The notes: generated by a model from the letters alone, not told the origin. Numbered from the stretch's first letter, positions 13,866 through 64,000 are shown. The stretch: DNA of 64,000 nt from Methanocellales archaeon (GCA_038850275.1 JAWCLZ010000002.1:38993-102992), one strand, 5' to 3'. Numbers and translations: made by a program.

Positions 13866-14877
13866 TTCAAAACAAGAGGCTAAAAAACTGCTTAAATTGA
13901 ATCCATTTAAGCTATTCGCCCTCGCGGATGAGTTGCGGGAGGAACTTGTAGGTGAAATTGTAACCTATGTTATTAATCGAAATATAAATTTCACAAACAT
14001 CTGCCAAGCTAAATGCAAATTCTGCGCTTTCCACTCTAGAGGTGGAGATGGCTTTTTTTTAAGCTTGGAGGGAATTTTGAAAAAAGTGGAGGAAGCTATA
14101 AAGTTGGGTGCAACTGAGGTATGCATCCAAGGTGGTTTATATCCTGGGATGAAGCTTGAGGATTATTGCAATATAATTAGAGCAATTAAGGAGAACTATG
14201 ATATTCACATTCACGCCTTCTCGCCAATGGAAGTTTTACACGCGGCTCGAAATTCCAAGCTCTCAGTGGAGAGTACTCTAAGGATTTTAAAACAAAATGG
14301 CCTTGATTCAATGCCTGGCACTGCAGCAGAGATATTAAACGACCGCATAAGAAGAGAAATATGCCCTCGGAAGCTAAAAACTAGCGAGTGGATTGCAATT
14401 GTGAAAAAAGCCCATGAACTGGGAATTCCAACAACTGCAACGATGATGTATGGTCATGTTGAAAGCCCTGAGGATAGAATAAACCACATGTTTTTAATTC
14501 GAAACCTTCAGCGAGAAACACATGGATTTACGGAATTCATTCCCCTCACGTTTATGTCAAAAAACAATCCACTAGGTGAGAAATCCCCAGGCGCTAGTGG
14601 TCTAGAGGATTTGAGAGTAATAGCCTTAGCTAGACTTATCTTCGCTGGCGATCTTAAAAATATCCAAGCCTCTTGGGTGAAACTCGGGGTAAAGCTAGCG
14701 CAAGTTGCACTTCACTGTGGAGCAAATGACTTGGGAGGTACATTGATGGAGGAAAATATATCTAAATCAGCTGGGGCTAAAACTGGGGAATATTTATCTC
14801 CACAGGAATTTGTCAAGTTAATTAAAGCAGCTGGTAGAGTGCCTAGGCAGAGGAGCACTTTATATGAACTACTATAG
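13828..14877 (+). CDS. cofH: FO synthase subunit 2, radical SAM
   Basis: 349 aa; [10 protein letters not shown] motif; overlaps cofG (alternative start MKLICN at 13849). Confidence 0.85.
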
Positions 14878-16419: not shown

Positions 16420-18159
16420 CTAAGTAACAATGCCTTTTAATTTTTCTCTATATAGCTTGAGCATTTCAAGTGCCTCCTCCTCGCTGAGCTTACCCTGGAG
16501 GCACTCTGCTTCAAAGAAGCGCTTGGGGATTCTTACCTCAGTTAAGCTGAAGCCCTCTCGCTTTTTAAATTCATATTTAAGCTTGAAGATCTCTCTTCCA
16601 ATGTCAGCAAGCTCTTCCTTGGTTTTCTTAATCCCAAGGGCATCAAGTGCCCTGGAAACAATTTCTTCGCTGTAGACATTCCTCGCAAAGAGGCAGATAA
16701 CTAGAGAGTTCAACATAGCGCGAGTATTATCCTCGCAAATAATTGCATCAATGATCTGCTCCTTACTTAAGCGCTGCTTAGCAGCCTTTTGATCAATACT
16801 ATAACCAGCGTTATCCAAGTGACCGTGCCTAGGACCCACGATATGTCCTATTAGATTGGCATAGCCAGTGTGATACCCAGCGATCTCTAGTCCACCAAGT
16901 GCAATGGCAAAGTCCTCCCCTCCATATTTCTTCGCCGCTGCTATTACTCCCTCAGCTAGAGTTTTGTAGAATTCATTTGGCTGTTTAACGATCAACTCTA
17001 TAGCTTTCAAGTAACCCTCTACATCTCCCCATCGCAGCTGTACATTCATGGTGTCTCTCTTCGAAATCAAATGATTCTCATATGCTTCCGTTGCCCAGCC
17101 AAGCACCACTCCAGTGCTCAATGCATCTAAACCAAGGTGATCAACTCGCTCAATAAGGCGAAGCACTCCCTCAGCAAGTGGTATTCCTAAAAAGCTACCT
17201 AGAGCATAGATTGGCTCATAATCATATGGTATTAATTTGGTTTCAAATTCAAAGCCCTCTGCAAATGGAATGCGAAGCATGGCTATATGTATGCAGCCAA
17301 CTGGACAGGGAACGCATGCCATATGCCTTGTTAAGTAGTTCTCAGCAAAATGCTCGCCTGATATATAATCTGCATATTCAAATTGAGCAGTTTGTAGATT
17401 CCTAGTTGGTAAGGCTTTAAGTCGATTGAGTGCATTTACATTTATCGAAGTACCATAGTCGTGATATTTCTTTAACAAATCAGTTCCCACGATTAAATCA
17501 TAGATCTCTTTATATACTTCTTTATATTTCTCTAAATTTGCAATTGGAATCTCATGCGAGCCTGAGATCACAATTGCCTTCAAATTTTTGCTTCCAAAAA
17601 CAGCTCCTAAGCCAAGTCTACCGAAATGGCGATAAGTATCCACGTTGACATTTGCATATCTAACTTTTCTCTCCCCAGCGACTCCAATTCTAATTATACT
17701 TCGCTTCCCAGCTCCTGGCTCAATTTTTCGCAATATTTGTCCAACTACATATGCACTGCTAATTCCCCATATAGAGGATGCATCTTTGAATTTTACCTCG
17801 CCATCGTGGATGGAGAGATAAACTGGGCGCGGGGCTTTGCCTTTGATCACAATCGCGCCATAGTTTGCAAAGCGCATGGCAGCTGCCAATCTCCCCCCTG
17901 CGTGGCTCTCTCCAAGTTCATTTGTAAGCGGTGATTTAAACATAGCTACAACCTTTGTGCAAGTGGGAAAGATTGCTGAAAGTGGTCCAATAGCTAAAAT
18001 AATGGGGTTCTCAGGCGAGAATGGATCTATCCTCGGAGGGCATTCTTCAAGCAATAGCTTTGTGGCAACTCCACTGCCTCCTAGATATTTCTCAAAGAGA
18101 TCATAGCGATTCTCGACCTTAACTTTCTCCTCGCCTAGATTTATATAGAGTACCCTCAT
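16420..18159 (-). CDS. aor: Aldehyde:ferredoxin oxidoreductase family tungstoenzyme
   Basis: 579 aa; AOR N-terminal MRVLYINLGEEKV...YLGGSGVATKLL and Fe-S/pterin-binding Cys residues. Confidence 0.85.
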   Translation of the reverse strand: MRVLYINLGEEKVKVENRYDLFEKYLGGSGVATKLLLEECPPRIDPFSPENPIILAIGPLSAIFPTCTKVVAMFKSPLTNELGESHAGGRLAAAMRFANYGAIVIKGKAPRPVYLSIHDGEVKFKDASSIWGISSAYVVGQILRKIEPGAGKRSIIRIGVAGERKVRYANVNVDTYRHFGRLGLGAVFGSKNLKAIVISGSHEIPIANLEKYKEVYKEIYDLIVGTDLLKKYHDYGTSINVNALNRLKALPTRNLQTAQFEYADYISGEHFAENYLTRHMACVPCPVGCIHIAMLRIPFAEGFEFETKLIPYDYEPIYALGSFLGIPLAEGVLRLIERVDHLGLDALSTGVVLGWATEAYENHLISKRDTMNVQLRWGDVEGYLKAIELIVKQPNEFYKTLAEGVIAAAKKYGGEDFAIALGGLEIAGYHTGYANLIGHIVGPRHGHLDNAGYSIDQKAAKQRLSKEQIIDAIICEDNTRAMLNSLVICLFARNVYSEEIVSRALDALGIKKTKEELADIGREIFKLKYEFKKREGFSLTEVRIPKRFFEAECLQGKLSEEEALEMLKLYREKLKGIVT

Positions 18160-23185: not shown

Positions 23186-24313
23186 TCAATAAATTTTCCT
23201 CCCTAATTCGCCTGTAATAGGAATTTTTTCCCCGCATCGCCTGCAGATTTTCTCAGATGTTATATCGTGATAAATTAGATTAAACCCCCTTCGTTGGATT
23301 AAAAGTGCACCGCATTTAGGGCTATAGGTATTCTCATATCTGTGCCCGAATACATTGCCAATATAGGGATATTTCAAGCCCTCTTTTTTTGCAATTTCAA
23401 CTGCTTTCTCCAGTGTTTTAACTGGCGTGGGATAATGATGAGACATTTTATACATGGGTGTGAAGCGAGTGAAGTGAATAGGGGTATCTTGCCCGAGGTT
23501 TTCATATACCCATCTCGCTAGAGCTCGAATTTCCTCCTCAGAATCGTTTTTCTCAGGGATTATTAAATTGACCACTTCAACGTGCATTCCAAGTTCTCCA
23601 GCCCTCCTCGTAGATTCAAGCACTGGCTGGAGCTTTGCTGAGCAGATTTCTTCATAAAATCTATCGCTGAATGCCTTTATATCCACTCGAAATGCATCTA
23701 AATAAGGAGAAATGTATTCCAATGCTTTAATTGTTATATAGCCATTGGTTACATAAACTGTGTATAAGCCAGCTTTCTTCGCAAGTTTTGCAATGTCATA
23801 GGTGTATTCAAACCAAATCGTTGGCTCGTTATACGTCCATGCGATACCCTTGCTTCCACTTGCAATTGCATATTCAATTACCTCTTCAGGTGGAATTTCA
23901 ACCACTAGACTTAGATCGGGTTTAGCATGGGAAATCCTCCAATTTTGACAGTGGATGCATCTAAAATTACATCCCAATGTGCCAAGTGAATATACCAAGC
24001 TCCCGGGGTGAAAATGATAAAGCGGTTTTTTCTCAATTGGATCTACATTTTCTGAGGAAACCCAGTTATATATGATGGAGTAAAGCTTGCCCTCTATATT
24101 CTCCCGAGTTAAGCAAAAACCTTTTTTACCCTGAGCGATGATGCATTCTCTAGCGCAGATATTGCATTTAACTTTATCCCCATCTCCATCGAGCTTTTCA
24201 TAGAGATAGGCTTCTTTCATTGATTCAAAAATAACTCTCTCCCTATATCTCTTTTTCTTGTGTTTTCGCAATATTATGTTTTCGCATAATCTCTTTTTCT
24301 TGTGTTTTCGCAA
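23186..24313 (-). CDS. AmmeMemoRadiSam-system radical SAM enzyme (AmrS-like, PFL-activase family)
   Basis: GCNFRCIHCQNW radical-SAM cluster; N-terminal CNICARECIIAQGKKGFCLTREN Cys-rich domain; probable true start is MKEAYLYEKL at 24220, since the upstream extension is encoded by a promoter-region repeat. Confidence 0.7.
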   Translation of the reverse strand: MRKHKKKRLCENIILRKHKKKRYRERVIFESMKEAYLYEKLDGDGDKVKCNICARECIIAQGKKGFCLTRENIEGKLYSIIYNWVSSENVDPIEKKPLYHFHPGSLVYSLGTLGCNFRCIHCQNWRISHAKPDLSLVVEIPPEEVIEYAIASGSKGIAWTYNEPTIWFEYTYDIAKLAKKAGLYTVYVTNGYITIKALEYISPYLDAFRVDIKAFSDRFYEEICSAKLQPVLESTRRAGELGMHVEVVNLIIPEKNDSEEEIRALARWVYENLGQDTPIHFTRFTPMYKMSHHYPTPVKTLEKAVEIAKKEGLKYPYIGNVFGHRYENTYSPKCGALLIQRRGFNLIYHDITSEKICRRCGEKIPITGELGRKIY

Positions 24314-50457: not shown

Positions 50458-51597
50458 ATGATTGCAGATGCAAAAGCTCAGTTGAGCATGGACTTCCTAG
50501 GTGGATTTGTAATACTCTTCTTCAGTTTAGTAACAGTTTTAATATTTCTACCAACTTTATTCAGCACTCTTCAAAACCCAAGCATAGATCTCCACCCAGT
50601 GGCATATAGAACAAGTGTATTACTCGCAGAAGACCCAGGTTGGTGGAGCAATATCACAGTTGGCGAGCAAGGCTACAACTGGGAAGATCACTTGAACTAT
50701 ACTAGTAGAATTGGCCTTGCAAGCGTTAAATATGGAAAGGGAGATGCATGTATATTGGATAGAAATAAAACTCTAGCGCTTCTCACTCTATATAATAAAT
50801 CGGATTCCACAAGCTATGGAAAAATTCAAGATCTCTTGGGCTTGAAAAGCTCAACGCGAAAATACGACTACAATATAACATTCAAAATCCTGCCATCGGG
50901 AGCGATATGGAAAATTAAGCGGAATGAAAGCGGAGTATATAAAGAATATAATATGACATTTGGCAGAGAAATACCAAACTCTGGCAATGTGGAGAAAGTG
51001 GTGCGCATATTAAGAATTTATAAAGGATTTTACCCTGAATACATGCCATACATAGTCCCAGGTATAAACCCAGAGGAGAGGTGGTATCCAAACTGGCCAG
51101 ATGGATATTATCCCTTTGATGATATAAATGACGATGACAAAGGACAGTTTGACCACCCGCTCTTACTGAGCTATCCACTGGGGTATTTCAAGATATATAA
51201 TTTCGGCAGAGAGCCAAGTGCTACAGCTGTAGACGATCTCGACCTATATGTAACAACTGATCTCACTCAAACTGAAAATCGTTTATTGCACGCGAATCCC
51301 AACCTCGTGGTTTCTTGGAACAACAACACCGGCTGGAGCGGGCCATATTGGAATGGCACTGATTGGAGCATAGACCCAGGTACTGGTTTGAAGTCACGCA
51401 ATTTCGAAGAAGAAATCAATAGCAAACTTGAAGACCTAAATGCTAGCGATGGACAGCTATTTTTGCTTTCAATTAAATATCACAATGCACAAGGAGATGT
51501 CTCTGCACCCAATGCAGTGACTTGGCTTGAAGATCCTTGGCTGCCAACGGGAGAAGACATTCGTGGATTATTCAAACTGGAGGTATGCATATGGTAA
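50458..51597 (+). CDS. Class-III-signal (type IV pilin-like) secreted protein, gene A of the pilin/adhesin operon
   Basis: 379 aa; N-terminus MIADAKAQLSMDFLGGFVILFFSLVTVLIF fits the archaeal prepilin Q-x-S-x-[ED]-F-L + hydrophobic helix pattern; many N-glycosylation sequons; W/Y/D-rich ectodomain. Confidence 0.5.
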   Translation: MIADAKAQLSMDFLGGFVILFFSLVTVLIFLPTLFSTLQNPSIDLHPVAYRTSVLLAEDPGWWSNITVGEQGYNWEDHLNYTSRIGLASVKYGKGDACILDRNKTLALLTLYNKSDSTSYGKIQDLLGLKSSTRKYDYNITFKILPSGAIWKIKRNESGVYKEYNMTFGREIPNSGNVEKVVRILRIYKGFYPEYMPYIVPGINPEERWYPNWPDGYYPFDDINDDDKGQFDHPLLLSYPLGYFKIYNFGREPSATAVDDLDLYVTTDLTQTENRLLHANPNLVVSWNNNTGWSGPYWNGTDWSIDPGTGLKSRNFEEEINSKLEDLNASDGQLFLLSIKYHNAQGDVSAPNAVTWLEDPWLPTGEDIRGLFKLEVCIW

Positions 51598-52187
51598 AAA
51601 GCGAAGCACAGGTTTTCACCCTCGAGGGCTTGGGCGCGGCTGTGATAATAATGCTTGCATTATACTTCATGCTTCAATCCCCAGTTATCTTCACCCCTCC
51701 AACTGCGCAGCATTTAAATGTTCAACTTTCCCAACTCGGTAGAGATGCACTTCTAGCGCTTGATATAGAAGTGCCTAGCAATAGTACTCTTGCTAATTAT
51801 ACTTTGAAGAGCTATTTAAAAGCAATTAATAAAAGCGACCTTAAGATTCCAACTCAAATGAGAAAAGACCTATGCTCTCTTCTCCCGAGGAATGTGATGT
51901 TTAACGTGGTTTTAAGCTATGTTAATTTAAGCGGGGTAAACATAAGCGAGGGGAATTATACCATGCTAAATATCACCACTCTTATCTTAAATTCTGATAA
52001 TACTACTGAATTCATAACCAATCTCACGCCTCCTCAGGATTCCACAACTGCTAGCCATTTAGTAGTGCTCTACGATAGCGAGCTTAGCGAGGACTCGCCA
52101 TTCAAAGTAAATGCAACTGAAATGGGAACTGAGCCTGAGAGAATACCCCACGTTATAGAGGTGAGACTTGAGCTATGGTATGTTTAA
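51585..52187 (+). CDS. Class-III-signal pilin-like protein, gene B
   Basis: Start MHMVKSEAQVFTLEGLGAAVIIMLALYFML; ~11 sequons in ~200 aa; overlaps gene A by 13 nt. Confidence 0.5.
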   Translation: MHMVKSEAQVFTLEGLGAAVIIMLALYFMLQSPVIFTPPTAQHLNVQLSQLGRDALLALDIEVPSNSTLANYTLKSYLKAINKSDLKIPTQMRKDLCSLLPRNVMFNVVLSYVNLSGVNISEGNYTMLNITTLILNSDNTTEFITNLTPPQDSTTASHLVVLYDSELSEDSPFKVNATEMGTEPERIPHVIEVRLELWYV

Positions 52188-52600
52188 GAAATGAAGAAGG
52201 GCAGATCATAATATTATTTGGATTTTTAATAGCAGCTAGCTTAATCGTATTAGCTGTGCTTTTAAATACTGTGCTATTCTCAGGCCAGCAGGCAGTCGTT
52301 GGGGAGTTTACCTTCCCTAAATATGAGATACAGGATATAAGGCTTCAAACTCTAGAGCAAGCTAAAATTGCGGCAAATCGCTCGGAGTTTAAAAATGAAA
52401 CTATATTTAATGAGATAATTGAGCTATATAGTAAGCAAATCCTAGCATTATATAGCGAGAGGGGTGCTTATGCTTTAGTCACAATTAAGCCTGTGAAGAG
52501 TGGAGAGAATATAACTTGGGCTCAAGTCAAGGTAATCTACAACGATATGTATACTGATTACAAAAGTGTGGATGTGATCTATGATTTAAAGGGGGAATAA
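52175..52600 (+). CDS. Class-III-signal pilin-like protein, gene C
   Basis: 141 aa; RNEEGQIIILFGFLIAASLIVLAVLL (KGQ-type prepilin cleavage context + hydrophobic helix); overlaps gene B by 13 nt. Confidence 0.5.
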   Translation: MVCLRNEEGQIIILFGFLIAASLIVLAVLLNTVLFSGQQAVVGEFTFPKYEIQDIRLQTLEQAKIAANRSEFKNETIFNEIIELYSKQILALYSERGAYALVTIKPVKSGENITWAQVKVIYNDMYTDYKSVDVIYDLKGE

Positions 52601-52607
52601 TTGGAAT

Positions 52608-55600
52608 ATGAATAAAATGAAGAAGAATATGAATAGTAATACTAAGTGGAATAAATTTGTTAATAATACTCAAGCGGTAACTCCAACCTATGAATATATA
52701 ATACTCATTGGAATTTTAATCGTCTATATCACTCTCTTCCTCACTATTTACGCTGATGAATTTGGAATAGCACCTTTGAGAATCGCAATGCAAACGCAGT
52801 TCGAGGATATTGGCAATGATATTAGCTCAAAAGTCGTGGATATGTATATAATTGCACCTGAATCAGGCTATTTAAAAACCAAATTCTACATGCCTCAAGC
52901 AGTTGGTAAATATGAATATAAAGTTGAATTCAAAGAAATAGGACTTGACCAGCAAATTTTGGTTTCAGCGCTGAGGTTTGAGAAAGAAGTAATGATCACT
53001 TTAAATAAAATAGGCTCAAGCTTAGGACTAACTGGCTCTACTTATAGTTCCACTCCTGAGCACTGGCTTATCTATAGCATGAGCTCGCAATATGATCTAA
53101 CTCCAATTGCAGTTGCATATCCAAGGGAAGTCTCTTATAACCTCACTTCTGGGTGGAGTGATATAGTTGTTTTCGATGGAAGTGATTCAAAAGGTATAGG
53201 CGAGCTTCAATATAAATGGGACTTCAATGGCGATGGAATTGTAGACGCGACTAATGCAACTGAATATTATCAATACTCAGCTCCAGGTGTTTACAATGCA
53301 ACTTTAACAATCTATGATCCAATTTTAGATAGAGAAGCTTCAACAACTGTTCAAGTAAATGTTACCACTAGTTATATCGAGCCATCCATAGATGCCTATA
53401 AATATGTATCTCCAAGGAGCTTTGGAGTGGGTAAACCAAGTTATACAACTATAGTGCTCTATGGCAAGGGAATACCTCAAAATGAATCCCATATTGATGT
53501 AATGCAAGTGATAGATGTCTCAGGAAGTATGGATCCAGATTGGCTAAAGATAGCTGGCGGTGATCCAGAAACAGGCTACACTCCATTCTCAAATAAGAGT
53601 ATAAAGGGAACCGCTGGAAGCAAGATCTGGACTGAGAGCTTTAGTTTAACAAGCGCTGCTAATGAAACAATTGAAAAACTTCACGTTGAACTCTGGAATG
53701 TAAGCGGGAGTAATAATGTTGATCTCTACGTCAAGCCCCCAGGTGGAATTGCTGAGAGAGCGCAGACTATAACTCCTTGGTATGAGCGCTATGAAAAAGC
53801 AAATCCACCCTTAGGTAGCTATACCATCTACGTACTTGGAGACTTCCCAGTTGGGAGCCAGTCGTTTAAAGTGAATGTAAACAAGACCTCAAAGATTAGT
53901 ATAAGTGGAGCTGTGGATACCTACACTTGGAGCAATACCACTTATAATTTGAACGTGGCTAAGTGGATGGAGACATATATAACTTGGCCCACTAGCTCAG
54001 TCGATCTAAATCTATATTTAACCGACCCGAGCTCAGCAACTTATGCTCCAACTTCAGCAAATCTCTCTTCGCCCTCTCGCAATTGGGAGCGAATTTATCT
54101 CACTAATATAAAAGCTGGGGACTGGACAGTTGCAGTTTACAACAATGGGTCTTACCCCACTTATAATGTTACAATTCAAGCTTGGTGCATCGAAGAAAAC
54201 AAGGATCCCAAAGTGGATATAACCATGGATGGCTCTTCAACTGGTAAAAAAACCCCACATACCTTCACAGGTTTAACAGGCACTCATACCTTCACTGTGC
54301 CCAGCAGCGATTCAAAAGGACATCAATTTTGGAAGTGGAATGAAACTGGCTCTACAAGTAGAACGATAAGTGTGAGTTCAAGTGGAACTTATACCGCTGT
54401 ATATCGCCAGCCTCCACCTACCCCTACACCAACACCAACTTTCACAATTTCAAATCCAGGAGAGCAGACTGTGTATCGAGGCAGCTCGAAATCAATAAGT
54501 ATAACGGTAACAAGTTATTATGGCTATAACAAAGAGGTTAGTTTAAACGCTAGCGGAATGCCAAGTGGCACTACAATTACCTTCACTCCCGATAAAAAAA
54601 CGCCCACATTTAGCTCTACAATGACTATAAATGTGAGCGCGAGTACGCCAACTGGAAATTATCCAATAACAATCATTGGCACTGGGAGCGATGGATTAGT
54701 TAAAACTCAAACATTCACATTATATATACCTGATTTCTCAATAAGTGCTTCTCCCTCTTCGGGGAGTGTTAAAACCACGGGCGGGAGCACCAATTATACC
54801 ATTACCTTAACCTCGCTATATAAATTCGCAGGCAGCATCTCGCTCTCAATCTCAGGATTGCCAGCAGGTGCTAGTGCCACATTCAGCCCTAATCCAGTTA
54901 GCCTATCAGCTGGGCAAACTAAGACCTCAACCCTCACTGTTTCAGTGCCCCCTGGAACTCCAGTTGGAGATTATACCTTAACCATAACTGGCATAAGTGG
55001 AAGCCTCAGCCATTCAACAAGCGTAACTCTTAAAGTCATAATACCCCCACCTGGCTTGCTCTACTGGCTAGCTAGACTATATGAAATCTCACTCCCAAGT
55101 CCATGGATCAGCGCTAGAGCTGCTCCAGGTGTAGAGAGCTTCACTGGATATATACGCCTTGGCGAAACTCCAGTAACAAACTTTAGCGGCAATATAACTG
55201 CAAGCGAGCCGCCTAGGTGGGATAATACTGAGAGTCCAATCTTGATTAATGAATCCATTGAGAACTTCAAGATAAGTTTGAATTACTACGATGAATATGG
55301 GAATGAAAGTTTGCACTTCTGGGTAAGTAAAAATGGCGCTCCTCCAGTGCTAGTAGCTGGATTAATGGGTGAGTACTATGACAACATGGATTTAACCAAT
55401 TTGAAATTAACTAGACTAGACCCAGTGGTAGACTTCAACTGGGGCTCAGGCTCACCACATTCTTCAATTGAAGCTGATACCTTCTCAGTTAGATGGACTG
55501 GCTATGTTAAAGTGGATAGGTCTGAGACTTATACATTTTATGTAGTTACAGACGATGGAAGTAGGGTATGGGTTGATGATACGCTTATCATCGATTCTTG

Positions 55601-56792
55601 GATTAATCAATCAACGACTGAGCGCAGTGGAAGTATTTATCTCGCTGAGGGCTGGCATAAGATAAAATATGAATATTATGAGAACACTGGAAGTGCAACT
55701 GCTAGATTGCTATATTCCTCTCCAAGCACGCCTAAACAAGTTATACCGCAGGATCACCTGAGCCCAGTTAATATGAAGGGCAATGTATGCATAAATTATA
55801 CTGAGACAAATGTAATTGCACCTGCTACTTACACTATTTATATAACTGGAACTTTCCTCAGCGGTACAAAGGATTTTGAACTGCAAACCTATATGGCTAA
55901 ACTAGATGCAGCTAGGATAAGTGGTAAAACCTTTGAGGATATGTTGAATAGCTCTTCAGATAAATCTGGATTAGTTTCATTTGGTGGCAATGCAACTATT
56001 ATTAACCAATCAGATGTGAGGTTGATTCAAAGTCTAACTTATAGCCATAGCCTTGTTAAAGCTGGCTTCGATTTATTAGAGGCGCATAATGGCACGCCAG
56101 TGGGTGAAGCCATCTATGTTGCAGTTCAAGAGCTAAATAATTCCTCGGAGTTCTTCACTGAGAATGATCGCACTCGAGTGCCTGTGATAATCTTGCTCTC
56201 AGATGGACTGCCAACCCTCCCAGCAACCCTTGAGGAGATCTCTGAAAATAATTATACTCGAGCTATTCAATATGCCCTTGAGCAGGCTAATATTGCGAAG
56301 AGCATGGGTATTTTGATCTATGCAATTGGATTTGGAGTTGATGCTGACATGAATTTCCTCGCTAACATCTCAAGTGGCGAGGGCTTTTACTTCTTCGCTG
56401 CTACTAAAGAAGAGCTTCAAGCGATTTATCTGCAAATAGTTAAGGAACTTAGGGAATATGCTGGTAGAAATGTAGTGATCACTGATGTAGTGCCAGCTGG
56501 TATAAATGTAGTAAGCGCACCAGGAGCGAGTGAGATAATTAATAATGATGATGGAACTACAACTATTATCTGGAGAGTAGGTGGAGTTAAAATTTATAGA
56601 CATGGTCAAACACCACTGGTGAGGAGATTGGTGATATCAACTATGAGCACTGGTTCCACTAATGCCAATGTATATGGTCTCTCCAATGTTACTTATACCA
56701 ATGTTATCACAGGTGATCTAACCACTTTTGTATTTCCTGAGACGAATATCTACGTTAAACCAGTTGGCAGTGGACAGATGAGTATGGAGTGA
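52608..56792 (+). CDS. Giant (1394 aa) surface adhesin with pilin-like N-terminal TM segment, MIDAS motif, PPC-like beta-sandwich repeats, TP-linker, PA14 domain and vWA domain
   Basis: N-terminus ...TQAVTPTYEYIILIGILIVYITLFL is pilin-like. DVSGSMD is a MIDAS D-x-S-x-S motif at aa ~302. VDLYV / VDLNLYLT are PPC-type motifs. PPPTPTPTPT is a linker. The PA14 domain (aa ~917-1040) contains GEYYDNMDL...FSVRWTGYVK...YTFYVVTDDGSRVWVDD...GWHKIKYEYYE. The vWA C-terminal half (aa ~1100-1290) contains GNATI...NGTPVGEAI...ILLSDGLPT...ILIYAIGFG. Confidence 0.7.
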   Translation: MNKMKKNMNSNTKWNKFVNNTQAVTPTYEYIILIGILIVYITLFLTIYADEFGIAPLRIAMQTQFEDIGNDISSKVVDMYIIAPESGYLKTKFYMPQAVGKYEYKVEFKEIGLDQQILVSALRFEKEVMITLNKIGSSLGLTGSTYSSTPEHWLIYSMSSQYDLTPIAVAYPREVSYNLTSGWSDIVVFDGSDSKGIGELQYKWDFNGDGIVDATNATEYYQYSAPGVYNATLTIYDPILDREASTTVQVNVTTSYIEPSIDAYKYVSPRSFGVGKPSYTTIVLYGKGIPQNESHIDVMQVIDVSGSMDPDWLKIAGGDPETGYTPFSNKSIKGTAGSKIWTESFSLTSAANETIEKLHVELWNVSGSNNVDLYVKPPGGIAERAQTITPWYERYEKANPPLGSYTIYVLGDFPVGSQSFKVNVNKTSKISISGAVDTYTWSNTTYNLNVAKWMETYITWPTSSVDLNLYLTDPSSATYAPTSANLSSPSRNWERIYLTNIKAGDWTVAVYNNGSYPTYNVTIQAWCIEENKDPKVDITMDGSSTGKKTPHTFTGLTGTHTFTVPSSDSKGHQFWKWNETGSTSRTISVSSSGTYTAVYRQPPPTPTPTPTFTISNPGEQTVYRGSSKSISITVTSYYGYNKEVSLNASGMPSGTTITFTPDKKTPTFSSTMTINVSASTPTGNYPITIIGTGSDGLVKTQTFTLYIPDFSISASPSSGSVKTTGGSTNYTITLTSLYKFAGSISLSISGLPAGASATFSPNPVSLSAGQTKTSTLTVSVPPGTPVGDYTLTITGISGSLSHSTSVTLKVIIPPPGLLYWLARLYEISLPSPWISARAAPGVESFTGYIRLGETPVTNFSGNITASEPPRWDNTESPILINESIENFKISLNYYDEYGNESLHFWVSKNGAPPVLVAGLMGEYYDNMDLTNLKLTRLDPVVDFNWGSGSPHSSIEADTFSVRWTGYVKVDRSETYTFYVVTDDGSRVWVDDTLIIDSWINQSTTERSGSIYLAEGWHKIKYEYYENTGSATARLLYSSPSTPKQVIPQDHLSPVNMKGNVCINYTETNVIAPATYTIYITGTFLSGTKDFELQTYMAKLDAARISGKTFEDMLNSSSDKSGLVSFGGNATIINQSDVRLIQSLTYSHSLVKAGFDLLEAHNGTPVGEAIYVAVQELNNSSEFFTENDRTRVPVIILLSDGLPTLPATLEEISENNYTRAIQYALEQANIAKSMGILIYAIGFGVDADMNFLANISSGEGFYFFAATKEELQAIYLQIVKELREYAGRNVVITDVVPAGINVVSAPGASEIINNDDGTTTIIWRVGGVKIYRHGQTPLVRRLVISTMSTGSTNANVYGLSNVTYTNVITGDLTTFVFPETNIYVKPVGSGQMSME

Positions 56793-56796
56793 TGAG

Positions 56797-57588
56797 ATGC
56801 TAAACTCAAGAGAAGCAGTATCAGAAGTAGTTGGATATATGTTGATCTTCACCATAGTGGTGCTCTCCATAGGATTGATGTATGTCTATGGCTATCCCAT
56901 TTTAGAGGACCTTCAAAATAGAATTCGCTTTCAAAACGCTGAGCAGGGATTTGCAACTCTACAGGCTGATTTAGATAGAGTGGTATTTGACCAAGCACCT
57001 ATTAAGACCACGAGGATAAACACAGGTGGGGGATCCATTCAAGCTGCTTCCTCAGGGGATAGAATTAACATAGTGGTTAACATTAGCGGGGAGAAGAAAT
57101 ATGAAGTTACAAGGGAACTTGGAATCGTGGAATATCGCCACTTGGGGAAGAGAATTGCCTATATAGATGGCGGGGTATTCATAAAAGAGGGCGAGCGCTC
57201 TTATCTTCGAATTCCACCTAAGATCTATGTTTACAATGACACTGAGACCTCTAATCTAACAGTTATAATCTCAATTTTCTCGATATACTGCAAATATCCC
57301 ACGATGGGTGGGGGCGAGAGGGTATCAGTGTTGAGTAAATTTAATAGGTCGAGCACGAGTGCTTATATCAATCAAAGCTTTAACTCTAGCTTGAGCAATG
57401 TAACCATAGTTATAAATAGTAGTTTATACGCTGATGCTTGGGAAATGCACTTTAGCAATCTCAAAGAGCGGGCATACGTTGGGATAGAGGTCACGAGGTT
57501 GAATTCCACTCACGTGAGAGCAGTAATTCCATTCAATAGAGTGGTCATCGCTGAGAATAAAGCTGATGTAGAGGTATTCTCTAGTTAA
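56797..57588 (+). CDS. Type IV pilin-like protein (DUF1628-like N-terminal domain), gene E
   Basis: 263 aa; MLNSREAVSEVVGYMLIFTIVVLSIGLMYV closely resembles the haloarchaeal/euryarchaeal pilin consensus R-A-V-S-E-V-I-G-V + hydrophobic helix; starts 5 nt after the adhesin stop. Confidence 0.55.
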   Translation: MLNSREAVSEVVGYMLIFTIVVLSIGLMYVYGYPILEDLQNRIRFQNAEQGFATLQADLDRVVFDQAPIKTTRINTGGGSIQAASSGDRINIVVNISGEKKYEVTRELGIVEYRHLGKRIAYIDGGVFIKEGERSYLRIPPKIYVYNDTETSNLTVIISIFSIYCKYPTMGGGERVSVLSKFNRSSTSAYINQSFNSSLSNVTIVINSSLYADAWEMHFSNLKERAYVGIEVTRLNSTHVRAVIPFNRVVIAENKADVEVFSS

Positions 57589-57595
57589 TTTATTT

Positions 57596-57631
57596 GATGA
57601 AGCTCTCTAGTTAATGAAGCTCTCTAGATTC
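57596..57631. repeat. 18-bp direct duplication of a start-codon region (atgaagctctctagtt / atgaagctctctagat)
   Basis: Read directly; the first copy encodes MKLSS* and the second is the start of the radical SAM gene. Confidence 0.8.
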
Positions 57632-58492
57632 AAGTCTCCTCAGCAAGCACTTTGCACTTGCTTGCCAAAGTATAACTTGAATCCCTATCTAGGGCGCTGT
57701 GAGCACGCTTGCATATATTGCTATAGCGTGAAATTCCCAAGTTTCAGGGGCAAGACTAGGCCTAGATTGAATCTTATTGATGATATTGAATCAATGGCTA
57801 GGAATACCAAGCCCAAGCTACCTATTATGATCAGCGATGCCACTGATCCCTATCAACCGCTTGAGAAGCAATATGAGATCACGAGATATTGCTTGAAAGT
57901 GTTGATAAAATATGGCTATCCCCTTTTGATTTTAACTAAATCTGATCTTATAACTCGCGATATTGATATTCTCAAGAGCGCTCGATGCATAGTTGGAATC
58001 ACGATTACAACTCTAGATGAAGAGCAAGCTAAGATGATTGAGCCAAATGCTCCATCACCTATCAAGCGCCTTGCAGCACTTGAAAAACTTACCGAGGCTG
58101 GCCTGCGTACCTTTGCAAGGATAGATCCAGTTATTCCTACTTTTAATGATCGCGAGGAAATGCTAGAGAAATTAATCAATGAAATTGCTATTGCTGGGGC
58201 TAAGCAAATAACTGTGAGTACCTTGAAACCAGTTCGAGGTTTTTTCACCTCACTTGCTAGAATTGATTTGGAGCTTTCAAAGCGCTTGCGCTCAATTTAT
58301 GATCAAGGGGAGTGCATTCTTGGGTATAGATATTTACCAATTGAGATTCGCAGGAGTATTATTTTAAGGCTATATAGAATTGCCTCCAAGTTTAACCTAG
58401 CATTTGCATCTTGCAGAGAGGGTTTATCGCATTTGAATACTACTCTCTGCGATGGCTCAAGCGAGCTGCGGTTTATCGAAAAATATATTTAG
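57614..58492 (+). CDS. Radical SAM protein, SplB/DNA-repair-photolyase-like family (COG1533)
   Basis: 292 aa; CEHACIYCYS (C-x3-C-x-YC) cluster motif. Confidence 0.6.
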   Translation: MKLSRFKSPQQALCTCLPKYNLNPYLGRCEHACIYCYSVKFPSFRGKTRPRLNLIDDIESMARNTKPKLPIMISDATDPYQPLEKQYEITRYCLKVLIKYGYPLLILTKSDLITRDIDILKSARCIVGITITTLDEEQAKMIEPNAPSPIKRLAALEKLTEAGLRTFARIDPVIPTFNDREEMLEKLINEIAIAGAKQITVSTLKPVRGFFTSLARIDLELSKRLRSIYDQGECILGYRYLPIEIRRSIILRLYRIASKFNLAFASCREGLSHLNTTLCDGSSELRFIEKYI

Positions 58493-58526
58493 TTTGTTCG
58501 CTTATATTCGAACAAATGTGATTAAT

Positions 58527-58988
58527 ATGGCAAGTCCAATGGAAGTCTTTCAACTCTTACCTAAAACAAACTGCAAGCTATGTGGAGAGCCAAGTTGCAT
58601 GGCCTTTGCATTTAAACTCATCTCTAAAGAACATAAATTAGAGGACTGTCCCCCGCTTTACCAAGAGAAAAAATATGCTTCAAATAGAGAAAAACTTGAG
58701 GCAATCTTCAAAAAAGTGGAGAAAGCAGTTGAAACAGGCTTGATAATTCACTCTGAAAAATGCTTTGGATGTGGAAACTGCGTTGTAGCTTGCCCTGTGA
58801 ATGTAGCTGAGGACCCAACTGGCTCAGCTCTTGGTCTAGGGCCTAAAAACGATAAGGTAATATTGAAGGTAGTGAAAGGAGTTATTACCGCTAACAATGT
58901 TCAAAAATGCCGTAGATTTGGGCCAGATAGAATACTTTGCAATGGCTGCATCGTAACTTGTCCAAGCGAGGCAATTGAATTTGTTTAG
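58527..58988 (+). CDS. Ferredoxin-type Fe-S protein: N-terminal CdhE/AcsC-like putative Fe-S domain (PF04060-like) + 2x[4Fe-4S] domain (FwdG-like)
   Basis: Start MASPMEV; LPKTNCKLCGEPSCMAFAFKL resembles the N-terminal Fe-S domain of corrinoid Fe-S protein; CFGCGNCVVACPVN and CNGCIVTCP clusters. Confidence 0.55.
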   Translation: MASPMEVFQLLPKTNCKLCGEPSCMAFAFKLISKEHKLEDCPPLYQEKKYASNREKLEAIFKKVEKAVETGLIIHSEKCFGCGNCVVACPVNVAEDPTGSALGLGPKNDKVILKVVKGVITANNVQKCRRFGPDRILCNGCIVTCPSEAIEFV

Positions 58989-58996
58989 GTGAGAAA

Positions 58997-60181
58997 GTGG
59001 CTCTCTGTCCAGTTTGCTCTTGCCTATGTGATGATATTGAAGTTGTGAAAAGTGCTAACAATATAGAAAGCTTGAGCAACGCGTGTAGAAGAGGCACAGC
59101 TTACTTCTTAAACTTCAACGTTGATCGCCTAGAGCCAAGTATAGATGGTAAAAAAGTGGAGGTTGAGGAGAGCATAAAAAGTGCAATTACGCTGCTTAAA
59201 AATTCTAGAAAGGTATTGATCTATGGCCTAGCAAATGTAGATGATGAAGCGCAGAAAATAGCTTTTGAAATAGCAGATAAAATCCCCTCAATTCTAGGAG
59301 ATTCCTCTGTTTATAGCTTTCTTGTCAAAAAGATTTTAGCACGCGAGATAAAAACTAATACCCTTGACTATGTGAGAGACCACGCGGATACAATTATCTA
59401 TTGGGGCTCAGACCCAAGTAATTCCCACCCTCGCCATCTCTCGCGATATACCTATTATCCCAGAGGTAAATATAGACAGCGCGGTTGGGAGGAGGATAGA
59501 TATTTAATTGGCATTGATGTTAGGGATTCCTCAACTTCTAAGATGTTCAAAAAATTTTTAAAGATCAAGCCAAGTGAAGATGTGGATTTGATAAAAGCAT
59601 TGATAATCTCCCTCAGCGGTAAAATTCCAAATACCACTTTAGATAAAAAAACAATTTTAGAGCTCACTAGCCAGCTTAAAAAAGCAAAACATGGCGTGAT
59701 CTGCGCTGGATTTGGACTAGCGCAAGCGATATATAATAATCTCGAGCTCTTTAAGGAACTCCTTGCTAAGCTCAATGAAATTGGAGAATACATTGTAATT
59801 CCAATGCTCGAAGGAGCCAATGCCTTTGGATTTGAAAAGCTGATGTATGAGAAAAAAATTGACTCCACACTTGAGCAACTCCATAGGGCAATTTTAAATA
59901 GCGAAGTAGACCTAGCGCTTATCATAAAGTCAGACCCAGTTTCAGAACTGCCCAATCCTCTTCAAAAAGCTCTCTTAAAGATCCCCTTGATTGCAATTGA
60001 CTCCCGTAGGACTCTCACTTCAAGCAAGGCAAAGATTACAATACCAAGTGCAGCTGCAAGCATAGAGTTCAGCTGCTCCCTATATAGAATGGATGGAGTT
60101 ATGGTAAGAGGCGAAAAACTATTAGACTCTAGAGCAATGAGTGACGCAGAGGTCTTGAGAAGATTAAGAGAAGGGATTTAA
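58997..60181 (+). CDS. fwdB: Formylmethanofuran dehydrogenase subunit B-like molybdopterin oxidoreductase (FwdB/FmdB paralogue), possibly non-canonical
   Basis: 394 aa; N-terminal MALCPVCSCLCDDIEVV (FwdB C-P-x-C-x-x-L-C-D-D-I Fe-S motif); IIYWGSDPSNSHPRHLSR aligns with FwdB VVYWGCNPMHAHPRHMSR; the position of the W/Mo-ligating Cys (SVC) reads SVY here. Confidence 0.65.
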   Translation: MALCPVCSCLCDDIEVVKSANNIESLSNACRRGTAYFLNFNVDRLEPSIDGKKVEVEESIKSAITLLKNSRKVLIYGLANVDDEAQKIAFEIADKIPSILGDSSVYSFLVKKILAREIKTNTLDYVRDHADTIIYWGSDPSNSHPRHLSRYTYYPRGKYRQRGWEEDRYLIGIDVRDSSTSKMFKKFLKIKPSEDVDLIKALIISLSGKIPNTTLDKKTILELTSQLKKAKHGVICAGFGLAQAIYNNLELFKELLAKLNEIGEYIVIPMLEGANAFGFEKLMYEKKIDSTLEQLHRAILNSEVDLALIIKSDPVSELPNPLQKALLKIPLIAIDSRRTLTSSKAKITIPSAAASIEFSCSLYRMDGVMVRGEKLLDSRAMSDAEVLRRLREGI

Positions 60182-60182
60182 C

Positions 60183-60575
60183 ATGCCAATTAGCGAGTTC
60201 TTAATACACCCGGAGCATGAATTAACTCTTATTTTATATAGAGATATCTTCGTGGATGAAGCCATGCTTAAGAATAGATTCTCAAGCGAGCTTAAGCAAG
60301 CAGCGGCGTTTATTAGGCTTGATGAAGTGGATATTAAAAAAATTGGATTGAGGGAAGGCGGCAATGCAAGGATAAGTGGTTCTTCAAAAACCATTGTTGC
60401 GAGGGTGATAAAGGATCAAAAGCCCCATCAAGGATATGCATATATGCCCCTGAGTCCATGGTCAAACTCACTCTTGCACTTCGATGGCAAAAATTTAGCA
60501 GCCACGCGCGTGGCAAAGGTAAAAATATCCTACACCACGCTGCCTGTGACTGAGCTCAAAGAACTGCTAAGTTAA
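60183..60575 (+). CDS. fwdD: Formylmethanofuran dehydrogenase subunit D-like (molybdopterin dinucleotide-binding domain)
   Basis: 130 aa; immediately after the fwdB-like gene (1-nt gap); size and position typical of FwdD. Confidence 0.55.
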   Translation: MPISEFLIHPEHELTLILYRDIFVDEAMLKNRFSSELKQAAAFIRLDEVDIKKIGLREGGNARISGSSKTIVARVIKDQKPHQGYAYMPLSPWSNSLLHFDGKNLAATRVAKVKISYTTLPVTELKELLS

Positions 60576-60614
60576 ATTTTAGTTTTATATATTTCAAAAA
60601 CAAATTATTAGATA

Positions 60615-61742
60615 ATGAGGATATTTACCCAGTTAAGACCAGCGAAATGTGCGCTTTGTGGTGAGAGCTCGCTATTTATATCTGAGTTCTTAGGTGTTTG
60701 TGGTAACTGCATTAAAACTAAGTGGGATGAAAGCTTGCTCTATATTAAGAGGGCTCATAAAATAAGTAGAGAGCGATTCAACCTCCCCCTTGAGCCTCCG
60801 AGTAATGGGGTTAGCTGTGATTTCTGCGTTAATAAATGCAAGATTCCACTAGGTGGAGTGGGATACTGCGGCTTAAGGATGAATGAAGGAGGAAGGCTAA
60901 AGCACATAGCTGGCACACCGGAAATTGGAATACTGGAGTGGTATTACGATCCCCTTCCCACGAATTGCGTGGCAAATGAAATTTGCCCTGGATGTGCGGG
61001 CACTGGATATCCTAAGTATTCCTATTCGCAATATAAACCAGAATATGGCTATAAAAACCTCGCTGTATTCTACGGCGCTTGTACATTTAACTGCTTATTC
61101 TGCCAAAACTGGCATTATCGCTATCTCACTAATAAACGCGCACCTAGTTATTCAGCTAGAGAACTAGCAAGCAAGGTCGATCCTTTTACTTCTTGCATTT
61201 GCTACTTCGGTGGAGATCCAACGCCTCAACTTCCCCACGCTATTCAAACATCTAAAATAGCTCTTGAGGAAAACAAGAATAAAATCCTTCGAATTTGCTT
61301 TGAATCAAATGGTAGTATGTCGCGGTCTCTCTGCAAGCAAATCGCTGAGCTCTCGCTTACAAGTGGGGGTAATATAAAGTTTGATCTTAAAAGCTATGAT
61401 GAACATTTGAACATCGCTCTATGTGGAGTTACCAACAAGCAAACTCTTGAGAATTTCCAATACCTTGCTGAATTTGGTAAGCAGCGCAGGGAGCCAAGGT
61501 TTTTAACCGCGAGTACATTATTGATACCTGGCTATATTGATGCAAGCGAGGTTGAACAACTCGCGAAGTTCATAGCATCTCTAGACCCAGAGATACCTTA
61601 TTCTCTACTTGCTTTTTACCCTCAATTTTTCTTCACAAATCTCCCAACTACACCTAGGAAGCAAGCTGAGGAGTGCTTAGAAGTAGCGAGGAAAGCTGGG
61701 CTTAAAACTGTTTGGATAGGAAATATTCATCTACTTAGTTGA
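60615..61742 (+). CDS. Divergent AmrS/PFL-activase-family radical SAM enzyme with two extra N-terminal Cys clusters
   Basis: 375 aa; GACTFNCLFCQNW radical SAM motif; CDFCVNKCKIPLGGVGYCGLRMNEGGRL is homologous to the AmrS N-terminal domain of ORF 23186; additional CALCGE...CGNC zinc ribbon and CVANEICPGC cluster. Confidence 0.6.
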   Translation: MRIFTQLRPAKCALCGESSLFISEFLGVCGNCIKTKWDESLLYIKRAHKISRERFNLPLEPPSNGVSCDFCVNKCKIPLGGVGYCGLRMNEGGRLKHIAGTPEIGILEWYYDPLPTNCVANEICPGCAGTGYPKYSYSQYKPEYGYKNLAVFYGACTFNCLFCQNWHYRYLTNKRAPSYSARELASKVDPFTSCICYFGGDPTPQLPHAIQTSKIALEENKNKILRICFESNGSMSRSLCKQIAELSLTSGGNIKFDLKSYDEHLNIALCGVTNKQTLENFQYLAEFGKQRREPRFLTASTLLIPGYIDASEVEQLAKFIASLDPEIPYSLLAFYPQFFFTNLPTTPRKQAEECLEVARKAGLKTVWIGNIHLLS

Positions 61743-61765: not shown

Positions 61766-62680
61766 TTGGAGTCAGAGACCAAAAAATTGACTTACTCAGA
61801 CTATGTTGCTATCCTCGGAATGGGCTTTTTTCTTTTAATAGTGGAGTCCCTTGCATTATTTCTAGTGAGGCCTTTTCAAGAGAATAATATGCAGGTCTTT
61901 GAAGAACCAACGTCGATGTGGAATCCAGTTGCCTATATTTCAATAATCCTTTGCTTCACTATTTTCATATTAATAACCCTTCGATATGGGAAAAATTGGA
62001 TGATACAAGCTTTCATTGGATTCGCGGTGGTAACTACGCTTTTAATAATCTTCGATGTCTTCACCTCAAGATTACTTCCAAATACAATAGCTTTCCCTAT
62101 TGCTATTGCACTCACGGTTTCCTCAACTGTGCTTCTCTATAAATACCCAGAGTGGTATGTTGTAGATACCATTGGTGTAGTGATAGGTGCAGGTGCAGCA
62201 TCGCTATTTGGAATCTCCCTTGCAATAATCCCAACCATTGTTCTATTAATTACCCTCGCAGTTTACGATGCAATCTCAGTTTATAAAACCAAGCATATGA
62301 TTAAACTAGCTGAGGGGGTGCTTGCCCTTAAAATTCCAGTGTTACTCGTGATTCCTAAGAAGCGCAGTTTTTCCTATAGAAGACAAGCATCTCTAGGTAA
62401 AACTGGAGAGCGCGAGGCATATTTCATGGGCCTTGGGGATGCAGTTATACCTGCTATTTTAGTGGTATCAGCAAATGTTTTCATAGAAGAAGCCCCAGGG
62501 ATAATTGCAGCGATTAACTATCCAGCGCTTGGTGCAATGATTGGCTCGCTCATTGGTTTTTCAATGCTCATGACCTTCGTGGTCAAAGGCAAGCCTCAAG
62601 CTGGTTTGCCGTTGCTTAACACTGGTGCAATTTCAGGCTTCCTATTGGGGTGCTTTGCAAGTGGAATTATTCCCTTTTAA
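61766..62680 (+). CDS. Presenilin/signal-peptide-peptidase family intramembrane aspartyl protease (PSH-like)
   Basis: 304 aa; ~9 TM; catalytic YD (LAVYDAISVY), GLGD (FMGLGDAVIPAIL) and PAL (NYPALGAM) motifs in the canonical order. Confidence 0.7.
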   Translation: MESETKKLTYSDYVAILGMGFFLLIVESLALFLVRPFQENNMQVFEEPTSMWNPVAYISIILCFTIFILITLRYGKNWMIQAFIGFAVVTTLLIIFDVFTSRLLPNTIAFPIAIALTVSSTVLLYKYPEWYVVDTIGVVIGAGAASLFGISLAIIPTIVLLITLAVYDAISVYKTKHMIKLAEGVLALKIPVLLVIPKKRSFSYRRQASLGKTGEREAYFMGLGDAVIPAILVVSANVFIEEAPGIIAAINYPALGAMIGSLIGFSMLMTFVVKGKPQAGLPLLNTGAISGFLLGCFASGIIPF

Positions 62681-63725: not shown

Positions 63726-64000
63726 TTACTTCTTCACATACAGCGTTCCTTTTCCATCTACTGATAAATCACCTGTGTACTTTAAATATTCTTTGCCATC
63801 TAAGATCTCTATGCCTTCAAATTTGAATGCAGGCAGCATTTCTAAGACTTTTCCCTCAATTCTAATTTTACCTCCCTTCATCTCTCCACCTGGAATTGTG
63901 GCATTGCCTTTTATTATTATCTCTCCACCACTCATGCTTAAACCAGCTAATATACCTGCGTTTCCATGGATTTCGATCTTACCCCCTGCCATTTTCTCGC
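63726..64000 (-). CDS. GXGXG-repeat protein (FwdC/glutamate-synthase domain-3-like), C-terminal part only; N-terminus lies outside the window
   Basis: Repeated G-x-I-x-I-x-G-N-A-G / MSGGEIIIKGNA / MKGGKIRIEG beta-helix repeats. Confidence 0.5.
   Translation of the reverse strand, partial: EKMAGGKIEIHGNAGILAGLSMSGGEIIIKGNATIPGGEMKGGKIRIEGKVLEMLPAFKFEGIEILDGKEYLKYTGDLSVDGKGTLYVKK

Follow-up and report, generated by a model that had tools for sequence, protein, structure and literature searches.

A remodelled fwdG2B2D2-type module in a Methanocellales archaeon lacks the known catalytic residues of formylmethanofuran dehydrogenase

The catalytic residues of FwdB, the pterin-fold subunit of formylmethanofuran dehydrogenase, are Cys118, His119 and Arg288 (PMC6926001), and His290 also lines the metal site (PMC11656701); these four residue numbers follow M. 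wolfei FwdB. A paralogous cluster was named fwdG2B2D2 by Rohlin and Gunsalus and is constitutively expressed in M. acetivorans (PMC2838876). Searchable literature on fwdGBD or fwdG2B2D2 yielded only that 2010 naming paper and one description of a metagenome-assembled genome (MAG) of anaerobic methanotrophic archaea (ANME), and no functional study was found in it. Other molybdopterin-fold proteins without Cys118, encoded in Hdr clusters, have been proposed to belong to electron-transfer complexes without taking part in catalysis (PMC12054007). Here we describe a three-gene cluster at positions 58527-60575 of a 64,000-nucleotide stretch from a Methanocellales archaeon (GCA_038850275.1 JAWCLZ010000002.1:38993-102992), called the window below. 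The cluster is a strongly remodelled member of a known, uncharacterised paralogue family, and by its gene content and homology we assign it as the Methanocellales orthologue of the fwdG2B2D2-type paralogue module of formylmethanofuran dehydrogenase.

The three genes lie on the plus strand in the order G-B-D. The first (58527-58988) encodes a FwdG2-like iron-sulfur subunit of 153 residues, the second (58997-60181, GTG start) a FwdB2-like pterin-fold subunit of 394 residues, and the third (60183-60575) a FwdD2-like subunit of 130 residues, a molybdopterin-dinucleotide-binding cap domain. Residues 5-52 of the FwdG2-like protein form an N-terminal iron-sulfur domain of the CoFeSP/RnfB type (PF04060, 1.1e-14; phmmer match to the CoFeSP large subunit), and a FwdG-type 2x[4Fe-4S] ferredoxin domain spans residues 70-151 (phmmer match to 5t5i_G; Fer4 families). 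The twelve Cys residues of this protein would bind three predicted clusters. The FwdD2-like protein is matched by PF01568 (2.6e-08), by the FwdD model NF042908 (5e-10) and by FwdD chains in PDB. These domain matches bear out the fwdG-like and fwdD-like identities proposed in an earlier reading of the stretch, made from the sequence alone and referred to here as the sequence-only reading.

That reading also recognized the 394-residue protein as a FwdB homolog, which model, sequence and fold comparisons all support. It scores 327.6 bits against TIGR03129, 0.2 bits short of the equivalog cut-off of 327.8, and its phmmer matches to FwdB chains in PDB span 3e-49 (5t5i_B) to 4e-50, although a Pfam scan returned no family. 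The AlphaFold2 model is confident (predicted local distance difference test score, pLDDT, 92.4), and Foldseek aligns it to 5t5m_B and 8rja_B with template modeling (TM) scores of 0.90-0.92, at 26-29% identity to solved canonical FwdB chains. The N-terminal four-Cys [4Fe-4S] motif is intact, with C4, C7, C11 and C30 corresponding to M. wolfei C9, C12, C16 and C35. Of 50 positions invariant in canonical FwdB, the window protein keeps 31 and the family in general 33, and the nucleotide/pterin-domain motifs WGSDPSNSHPRH, DVR, SDP and RMDG are kept. The protein is 38 residues shorter than 5t5i_B, close to the difference of about 40 given earlier. An identical 394-residue protein has been deposited from a Methanocellales MAG under the label hypothetical protein. 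Canonical FwdB is encoded together with fwdA and fwdC; the operon described here consists of G, B and D only.

The protein departs from FwdB around the metal site. In place of the segment that carries the ligand Cys, the FwdB2-like protein has a shortened loop, GDSSVYSF (residues 101-108; 59297-59320, plus strand). The sequence-only reading described a Cys-to-Tyr change at the tungsten- or molybdenum-ligating position. Neither Cys nor Sec occurs there, as it had said, but the Tyr is seen only in the pairwise phmmer alignment, where Tyr106 (codon 59312-59314) falls opposite Cys118 and Ser107 opposite His119. Alignments that include closer homologs show instead a two-residue gap where the family has Cys-Gln (SSFCQG versus SSVY--S), and in these Tyr106 corresponds to the Phe that precedes the Cys. 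The family loop reads DDTSSFCQG; in its place, GDSSV[Y/F]--S is found both in the window protein and in the five sequences nearest to it (65-84% identity), and six relatives from independent assemblies (P0001-P0006) share the Cys-Gln deletion. At residue 106 the window protein alone has Tyr, against Phe in the five others, so that the position holds no conserved ligand; we reject a Tyr ligand on the grounds of this substitution and of the deletion at the Cys in family-aware alignments. Comparison with FwdB catalytic subunits, which had been suggested as a check, returned no Cys at the ligand position of the window protein. The aligned loop thus lacks Cys and Sec under either alignment, and the accurate wording is a shortened loop without Cys or Sec. 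A selenoprotein is ruled out as well, for the B reading frame runs without interruption and, as noted earlier, holds no in-frame TGA.

A second catalytic segment is altered too. Canonical FwdB has C118-H119 and M-R288-G-H290, and the FwdB2-like protein has a gap at 118-119, then Leu271 and Gly273. The sequence PMLEGANAFGF (residues 269-279; 59801-59833, plus strand) replaces canonical PMRGHYNVTGF and family PMVGHYNMRGF, so that Arg288 becomes Leu271, His290 becomes Gly273, and an Arg specific to the family (M. wolfei position 294) becomes Phe. A family-specific Tyr is also lost in the window clade. A loop of about fifteen residues (TGFINRV.F..G...HGPE) is absent from the protein. The family pocket motif, SSFC[QL]G ... 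PMVGHYNMRGF, is not found in the window protein, and about 10% of the family also deviate from it. The substitutions fixed in the clade include three new Cys, C9, C236 and C360. The last of these (codon 60074-60076, plus strand) replaces a Gly (M. wolfei G391, in an E-x-E-G-T segment); position 360 is Cys in 6/6 clade members, compared with Gly in 99% of 114 other family members and in canonical FwdB. C9 adjoins the [4Fe-4S] motif, and C236 is found in 5/6 clade members.

These features suggest the following arrangement. The trio would be a self-contained three-gene operon, a paralogue of the fwdG2B2D2 type, in which three predicted [4Fe-4S] clusters of G2 and a fourth in B2 would make up a wire that leads into the FwdB/FwdD pterin-fold pair. 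In the aligned pocket, Cys118, His119, Arg288 and His290 are deleted or replaced and the adjacent loop of about fifteen residues is gone. As all known catalytic residues are lost, the module presumably cannot work as a CO2-reducing formylmethanofuran dehydrogenase. Our preferred reading, to which we give roughly an even chance, is that the module, without a part in CO2 reduction, has been kept as a redox wire or scaffold with a vestigial or non-catalytic pterin pocket. The sequence-only reading had described a non-canonical FwdB/FwdD-like pair without the Cys/Sec ligand; that description holds, and the pair has its own FwdG-like subunit.

The family to which the trio belongs was scanned with one genome per GTDB species, giving 444 confirmed relatives; counts of loci given below refer to the best 80 species loci. 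These loci come from Methanotrichaceae, Methanolobus, Methanococcoides, Methanohalobium, ANME-3 and two Methanocellales MAGs, and 74/80 show the G-B-D order. G is the most conserved subunit, with 57-67% identity across 74/80 loci. Further search extended the family to Methanosarcina: at the M. mazei locus (L088) a ferredoxin G with the iron-sulfur domain, B and D are identically arranged, and this B matches the window B from end to end at 40% identity. The link to fwd2-type GBD clusters of Methanosarcinales, raised before as something to check, is confirmed by this gene order and this B protein. The window B protein is 40-46% identical to members of the family and carries their signature [IVL][FY]WG[SA]DPSN, and a neighbor-joining tree places it inside the non-canonical radiation.

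Relative to canonical FwdB, the whole family has Gln or Leu for His119, Val for Arg288, and a new Arg six residues later. Among family cluster representatives, Cys is kept in 198/221 and absent in 23/221 (about 10%), where it is replaced by Ser (8), deletion (5), Arg (3), Gly (3), Phe (1), Tyr (1), Asp (1) or Leu (1). Within Methanosarcina, the ligand position is Ser in M. mazei, Arg in M. horonobensis, Leu in M. siciliae and Cys in other species. The group of Methanocrinis and M. harundinacea has Ser at this position (SSYSQG), with G and D intact; loci L009, L019, L024, L027, L044, L055, L061 and L068 and sequences P0505, P0484 and P0507 were compared for these two sets of species. Members without the Cys also tend to be without the family Arg (Fisher p = 4e-5, with no phylogenetic correction). 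The alignments therefore point to a recurrent loss of the ligand Cys in the fwdG2B2D2 family, independent in about 10% of members, and to a pocket that is, by this evidence, dispensable in several lineages. Cys-His and Arg are likewise missing from many FwdB-like lineages among the 1128 matches of the search with representatives. A FwdB2-like gene occurs alone, without G or D, in tar-biofilm 'Halobacteriota' MAGs (L003, L010, L023) and in another MAG (L047); in L003 and L010 it adjoins hdrA and has Arg at the ligand position, in L047 the residue is Ser, and L023 keeps a Cys in the loop.

All three genes of the window module are under purifying selection. The ratio of nonsynonymous to synonymous substitution (dN/dS) against the closely related locus L001 is 0.13 for B, 0.07 for G and 0.15 for D; the G proteins are 94% identical in this comparison, and B gives 0.08 against the 65%-identical locus L002. 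These values bear on the idea that the module is a functionless relic on its way to becoming a pseudogene. A relic could account for lost active-site residues, two deleted loops and a score just below the NCBIfam cut-off. Its genes would hardly have intact reading frames in six independent assemblies, dN/dS of 0.07-0.15, a confident AlphaFold2 model, and clade substitutions that are fixed rather than scattered, and we consider decay highly improbable.

Several observations nevertheless weigh against a non-catalytic pocket. The FwdD cap and the nucleotide/pterin-domain motifs listed above are kept under purifying selection; scaffolds of the FhcB type have lost cap and pterin motifs, so a bis-pterin may still be bound and active here. 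About 90% of the family keep the Cys and the family-specific Arg, and the ancestral module probably does chemistry at this site. The fixed C360 and the other clade substitutions could mark a site that is rebuilt rather than dead. Finally, clustering of all open reading frames (ORFs) of the 80 loci identified no partner protein for a wire or scaffold and no conserved functional neighbor of the module, and neighbors vary by lineage. Those in Methanotrichaceae are BatA/vWA proteins, SUI1 and ornithine carbamoyltransferase, and those in Methanolobus are hdrA, hybrid-cluster protein, a gene resembling ferredoxin-thioredoxin reductase (FTR), aconitase and citrate synthase; none of either set is in the window. 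In several Methanosarcinaceae, a small gene resembling the FTR catalytic subunit precedes the module (L088, 571-4054; also L029, L007, L054, L070). It also adjoins a divergently oriented hdrA in M. mazei, L007 and L029, followed in M. mazei by a polyferredoxin gene.

The retained cap and pterin-domain motifs would fit the main alternative, an active tungsten- or molybdenum-bis-pterin oxidoreductase with a rebuilt site, which would have no protein ligand, as in arsenite oxidase, or would use Ser or Cys360, and which would act on a substrate other than CO2 or formyl-methanofuran with electrons carried by the G2 wire. The strong conservation of the four-cluster wire would suit such an enzyme, as would clade substitutions, Cys360 among them, fixed in members only 65-84% identical. 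The change from Cys to Ser in Methanocrinis and M. mazei would suit it too; Ser is a known molybdenum ligand in dimethyl sulfoxide reductases. A conserved metal site, in contrast, should not tolerate Arg, Leu, Gly, Asp or a deletion at the ligand position in close relatives, the neighboring pocket Arg, His and Tyr are lost along with the Cys, clade members have either Tyr or Phe at residue 106, and the gene context offers no candidate substrate. We regard a rebuilt, active enzyme as possible but on balance doubtful.

A broader proposal takes the family as a whole. It may be not a formylmethanofuran dehydrogenase at all but a distinct iron-sulfur/pterin-fold protein with a pocket of its own, built from Cys-Gln and the relocated Arg, and with a role that survives loss of the Cys; in the window clade this pocket may then have been rebuilt around Cys360 and have gained a novel cofactor environment or chemistry. 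Taken with all its parts, this proposal seems to us unlikely.

The reading of the module as a wire or scaffold leaves CO2 reduction to another enzyme, and one is encoded nearby in relatives. At the end of the window, about 3 kb downstream of the module and on the other strand, lies the 3' end of a canonical fwdC (63726-64000, minus strand), whose frame runs past the window end. Within it, the GXGXG gene described by the sequence-only reading as truncated (63726-63992) has no stop upstream of the ATG at 63992 and matches profile positions 161-260 of TIGR03122. The orthologs in L001 and L002 are full FwdC proteins of 257 residues (275-280 bits), followed by FwdA (837 bits in L002) and then a FwdB C-terminus; their fwdC and fwdA are complete, or cut only by the end of the locus. 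The gene is accordingly cut by the window end, with its frame leaving the window uninterrupted, and a truncated fwdC is ruled out. The succession of FwdC, FwdA and FwdB matches shows that the two closest relatives, L001 and L002, carry a canonical fwd..B-A-C operon at the corresponding place, where fwdC and fwdA form a separate operon that converges on the module. The earlier statement that fwdA and fwdC are missing thus holds for the G-B-D operon itself and does not extend to its surroundings in these relatives. CO2 reduction in the two relatives would fall to this canonical operon.

This proximity allows a further reading in which B2 and D2 are alternative subunits that dock on the neighboring FwdA and FwdC, forming a formyl-methanofuran hydrolase like Fhc, with formate released or consumed without redox chemistry. 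In the clade, canonical fwdA and fwdC lie only some 3-5 kb away. L001 also has an extra divergent fwdC-like gene (9571-10332, minus strand; 253 residues; 105 bits against TIGR03122, below the cut-off of 130.65), absent from the window, directly after the fwdD-like gene. The fold of the FwdB2-like protein is almost identical to that of FwdB, and a catalytically dead B subunit acting as a scaffold has a precedent in FhcB (PMC6926001). In other lineages, however, the module is not near fwdA or fwdC, a hydrolytic complex would not need a conserved four-cluster wire, and the deletion of the fifteen-residue loop together with other changes may affect the A-B interface. We consider a hydrolase of this kind quite improbable.

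The gene directly downstream of the module (60615-61742, plus strand) encodes a radical S-adenosylmethionine (SAM) protein of 375 residues. The sequence-only reading suggested that this protein, likened to AmrS and to the activase of pyruvate formate-lyase, might be a dedicated maturase. Its observation of CTFNCLFCQNW and of additional Cys groups is accurate. The protein scores 74.6 bits against the AmrS model TIGR04337 (cut-off 220) and falls similarly short of glycyl-radical activase models (PflA, 53 against 250 bits; YjjW, 39 against 232; NrdG, 33 against 131). Its best match in PDB is PflA (E = 2e-5), over the core only, and it is 22% identical to the product of the AmrS-like gene at 23186-24313; the TIGR04337 comparison covered the 375-residue protein alone. 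The alignment of homologs also held 149 unrelated FwdB-like sequences, which makes the counts for other Cys, including those of the radical SAM motif, unclean; Cys32, 68, 71, 85, 118 and 124, however, each occur in 120 rows, the number of radical SAM homologs present, and the extra Cys groups look like family traits. Most members have an N-terminal CxxC...CxxC, and homologs appear to share an AmrS-like Cys group and Cys118/124 of this protein. The family has more than 6500 matches and is named by no NCBIfam or Pfam model.

The proposal joins a maturase to a FwdBD-like molybdo- or tungstopterin protein with a Tyr ligand, and the Phe at residue 106 in the five closest relatives is at odds with that. 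In its favour, the radical SAM gene is the next gene after the module in the window, it is adjacent to the module in exactly the clade that has the remodelled site, and in L002 its ATG overlaps the stop of the fwdD-like gene (ATGA), an overlap that makes co-transcription with fwdD likely there. Its distribution and contexts speak otherwise. Thermoplasmata, Baldrarchaeia, Actinomycetota, Aminicenantes and Zixibacteria, which are not known to have Fwd, contain homologs that share 57-66% identity with it. In three contexts examined for homologs 60-66% identical (another Methanocellales MAG, a metagenome contig and a Thermoplasmata genome), there is no fwd gene within 6 kb, and the neighbors are argG, DUF72, a nitroreductase or a second radical SAM gene. 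As far as contigs reach, the gene is absent within 8 kb of the module in 77/80 species loci, and L001 and L002 are the only two of the 80 in which it is adjacent. Even in L001, the inverted extra fwdC-like gene stands between it and fwdD. In L085-L087 a minus-strand gene lies ahead of it, and the presenilin-like gene is its sole constant companion. A promoter of its own is suggested in the window by ttttatatat (60583-60592), a TATA-like sequence centred about 27 nucleotides before the ATG.

From these mixed contexts, the association of the radical SAM gene with the module is a clade-specific synteny and not a functional link at the level of the family, and the gene is very probably an unrelated neighbor. 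Its homologs lie in surroundings without fwd genes, an outcome that the sequence-only reading had itself named as counting against its idea. Distribution and gene contexts lead us to reject a maturase, and the larger proposal of a Tyr-ligated pterin protein matured by it is largely refuted; we hold it to be very unlikely indeed. As a weaker extension of the broader proposal above, the neighbor, which overlaps fwdD in L002, might have been recruited in this clade to a module with a rebuilt pocket. DUF72, nitroreductase and second radical SAM genes recur beside the family in other lineages (L081, L083, L084). A gene for a presenilin-type protease (61766-62680, plus strand, in the window) always follows the radical SAM gene in this clade.

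The module is part of a tight co-directional gene run on the plus strand from 57.6 to 62.7 kb; ORF calling confirms the four co-directional ORFs reported earlier, from the G gene through the radical SAM gene. A ribosome-binding-like site, AGGTGA (58987-58992, plus strand), shares nucleotides with the G stop codon and is separated by 4 nucleotides from the GTG start of B, and from this overlap we infer translational coupling of G to B. The D gene starts 1 nucleotide past the B stop. A/T-rich TATA-like elements, aaaatatattta and cttatatt (58480-58508, plus strand), lie 20-47 nucleotides 5' of the G start and are a candidate promoter for a G-B-D operon with predicted boundaries.

Another radical SAM gene (57614-58492, plus strand), kin to the PA0069, Rv2578c and DUF1848 families although far under their cut-offs (136 bits against 360), precedes the module; it is present in L001 and not in L002. 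Farther upstream, the products of a gene run at 50458-57588 have hydrophobic N-terminal segments of the kind usual in archaeal pilin-like proteins; one of them is a secreted protein of 1394 residues with Thr/Pro-rich linkers, and the run is syntenic in L001 and L002. The window also encodes an aldehyde:ferredoxin oxidoreductase, a tungstopterin enzyme (16420-18159, minus strand), and two adjacent radical SAM genes (12798-14877, plus strand), the second of which has a CofH/MqnC C-terminal domain and may be the CofH of F420 biosynthesis. From the aldehyde:ferredoxin oxidoreductase and the adjacent radical SAM genes, it follows that the organism makes pterin cofactors.

Annotation counts the trio as formylmethanofuran dehydrogenase subunits B, D and G, and metabolic reconstructions of methanogens and ANME count it among Fwd isoenzymes. 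Given the absence of His and Arg, the recurrent loss of the Cys, the selection on the genes and the constitutive expression, the fwdG2B2D2 family is probably functionally mis-assigned. For this window the result is mostly corrective. The more useful lead is the family, for which we found no statement in the searchable literature that it lacks the catalytic His and Arg or that it has repeatedly lost the Cys under selection. It is accessible, since Methanosarcina is genetically tractable, and it could show what role a pterin-fold protein takes after CO2 reduction ends.

The closest solved system is the Fwd complex of M. wolfei (PDB 5T5I/5T5M). The window B protein shares its fold (TM 0.90, 29% identity) and its N-terminal [4Fe-4S] cluster motif, the D cap is likewise a separate subunit, and the window G has the same 2x[4Fe-4S] domain as M. 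wolfei FwdG. The window B differs in lacking Cys118, His119, Arg288 and His290 and in being 38 residues shorter, the window G has an additional CoFeSP/RnfB-type domain, and fwdA, fwdC and fwdF are absent from the operon. Methanosarcina fwdG2B2D2, as represented by M. mazei, agrees with the window module in gene order, in the iron-sulfur fusion of G, in a B subunit 40% identical that carries WGSDPSNSHPRH, and in having neither His119 nor Arg288. It is the window clade that lacks Cys-Gln, the loop of about fifteen residues, and the family Arg and Tyr, and the FTR-like gene and the hdrA-polyferredoxin neighbors of the Methanosarcinaceae modules are absent from the window.

Three described cases are precedents for the proposed redox wire or scaffold, each with a FwdB-like or molybdopterin fold that has lost catalytic residues or cofactor. 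FhcB of Methylorubrum extorquens (6S6Y), found also by Foldseek, is a FwdB homolog in the role of a scaffold, without Cys118, His119 or Arg288 (PMC6926001); it has neither the N-terminal [4Fe-4S] domain nor a D subunit, both of which the window module keeps. The Hdr-cluster proteins of Methanolobus, Methanosarcina and ANME-2/3 are FwdB/FdhA-like and lack the ligand Cys (PMC12054007); compared by description, they differ in forming a clade near FdhG and FhcB and in an operon of hdrABC-mvhD-fdhB without G2 or D2. NuoG, the 75-kDa subunit of complex I, has a molybdopterin-fold domain without the cofactor in an iron-sulfur protein and is a structural match to the window protein (TM 0.77), although the two are only 14-15% identical and NuoG is a fused multidomain protein in a defined complex.

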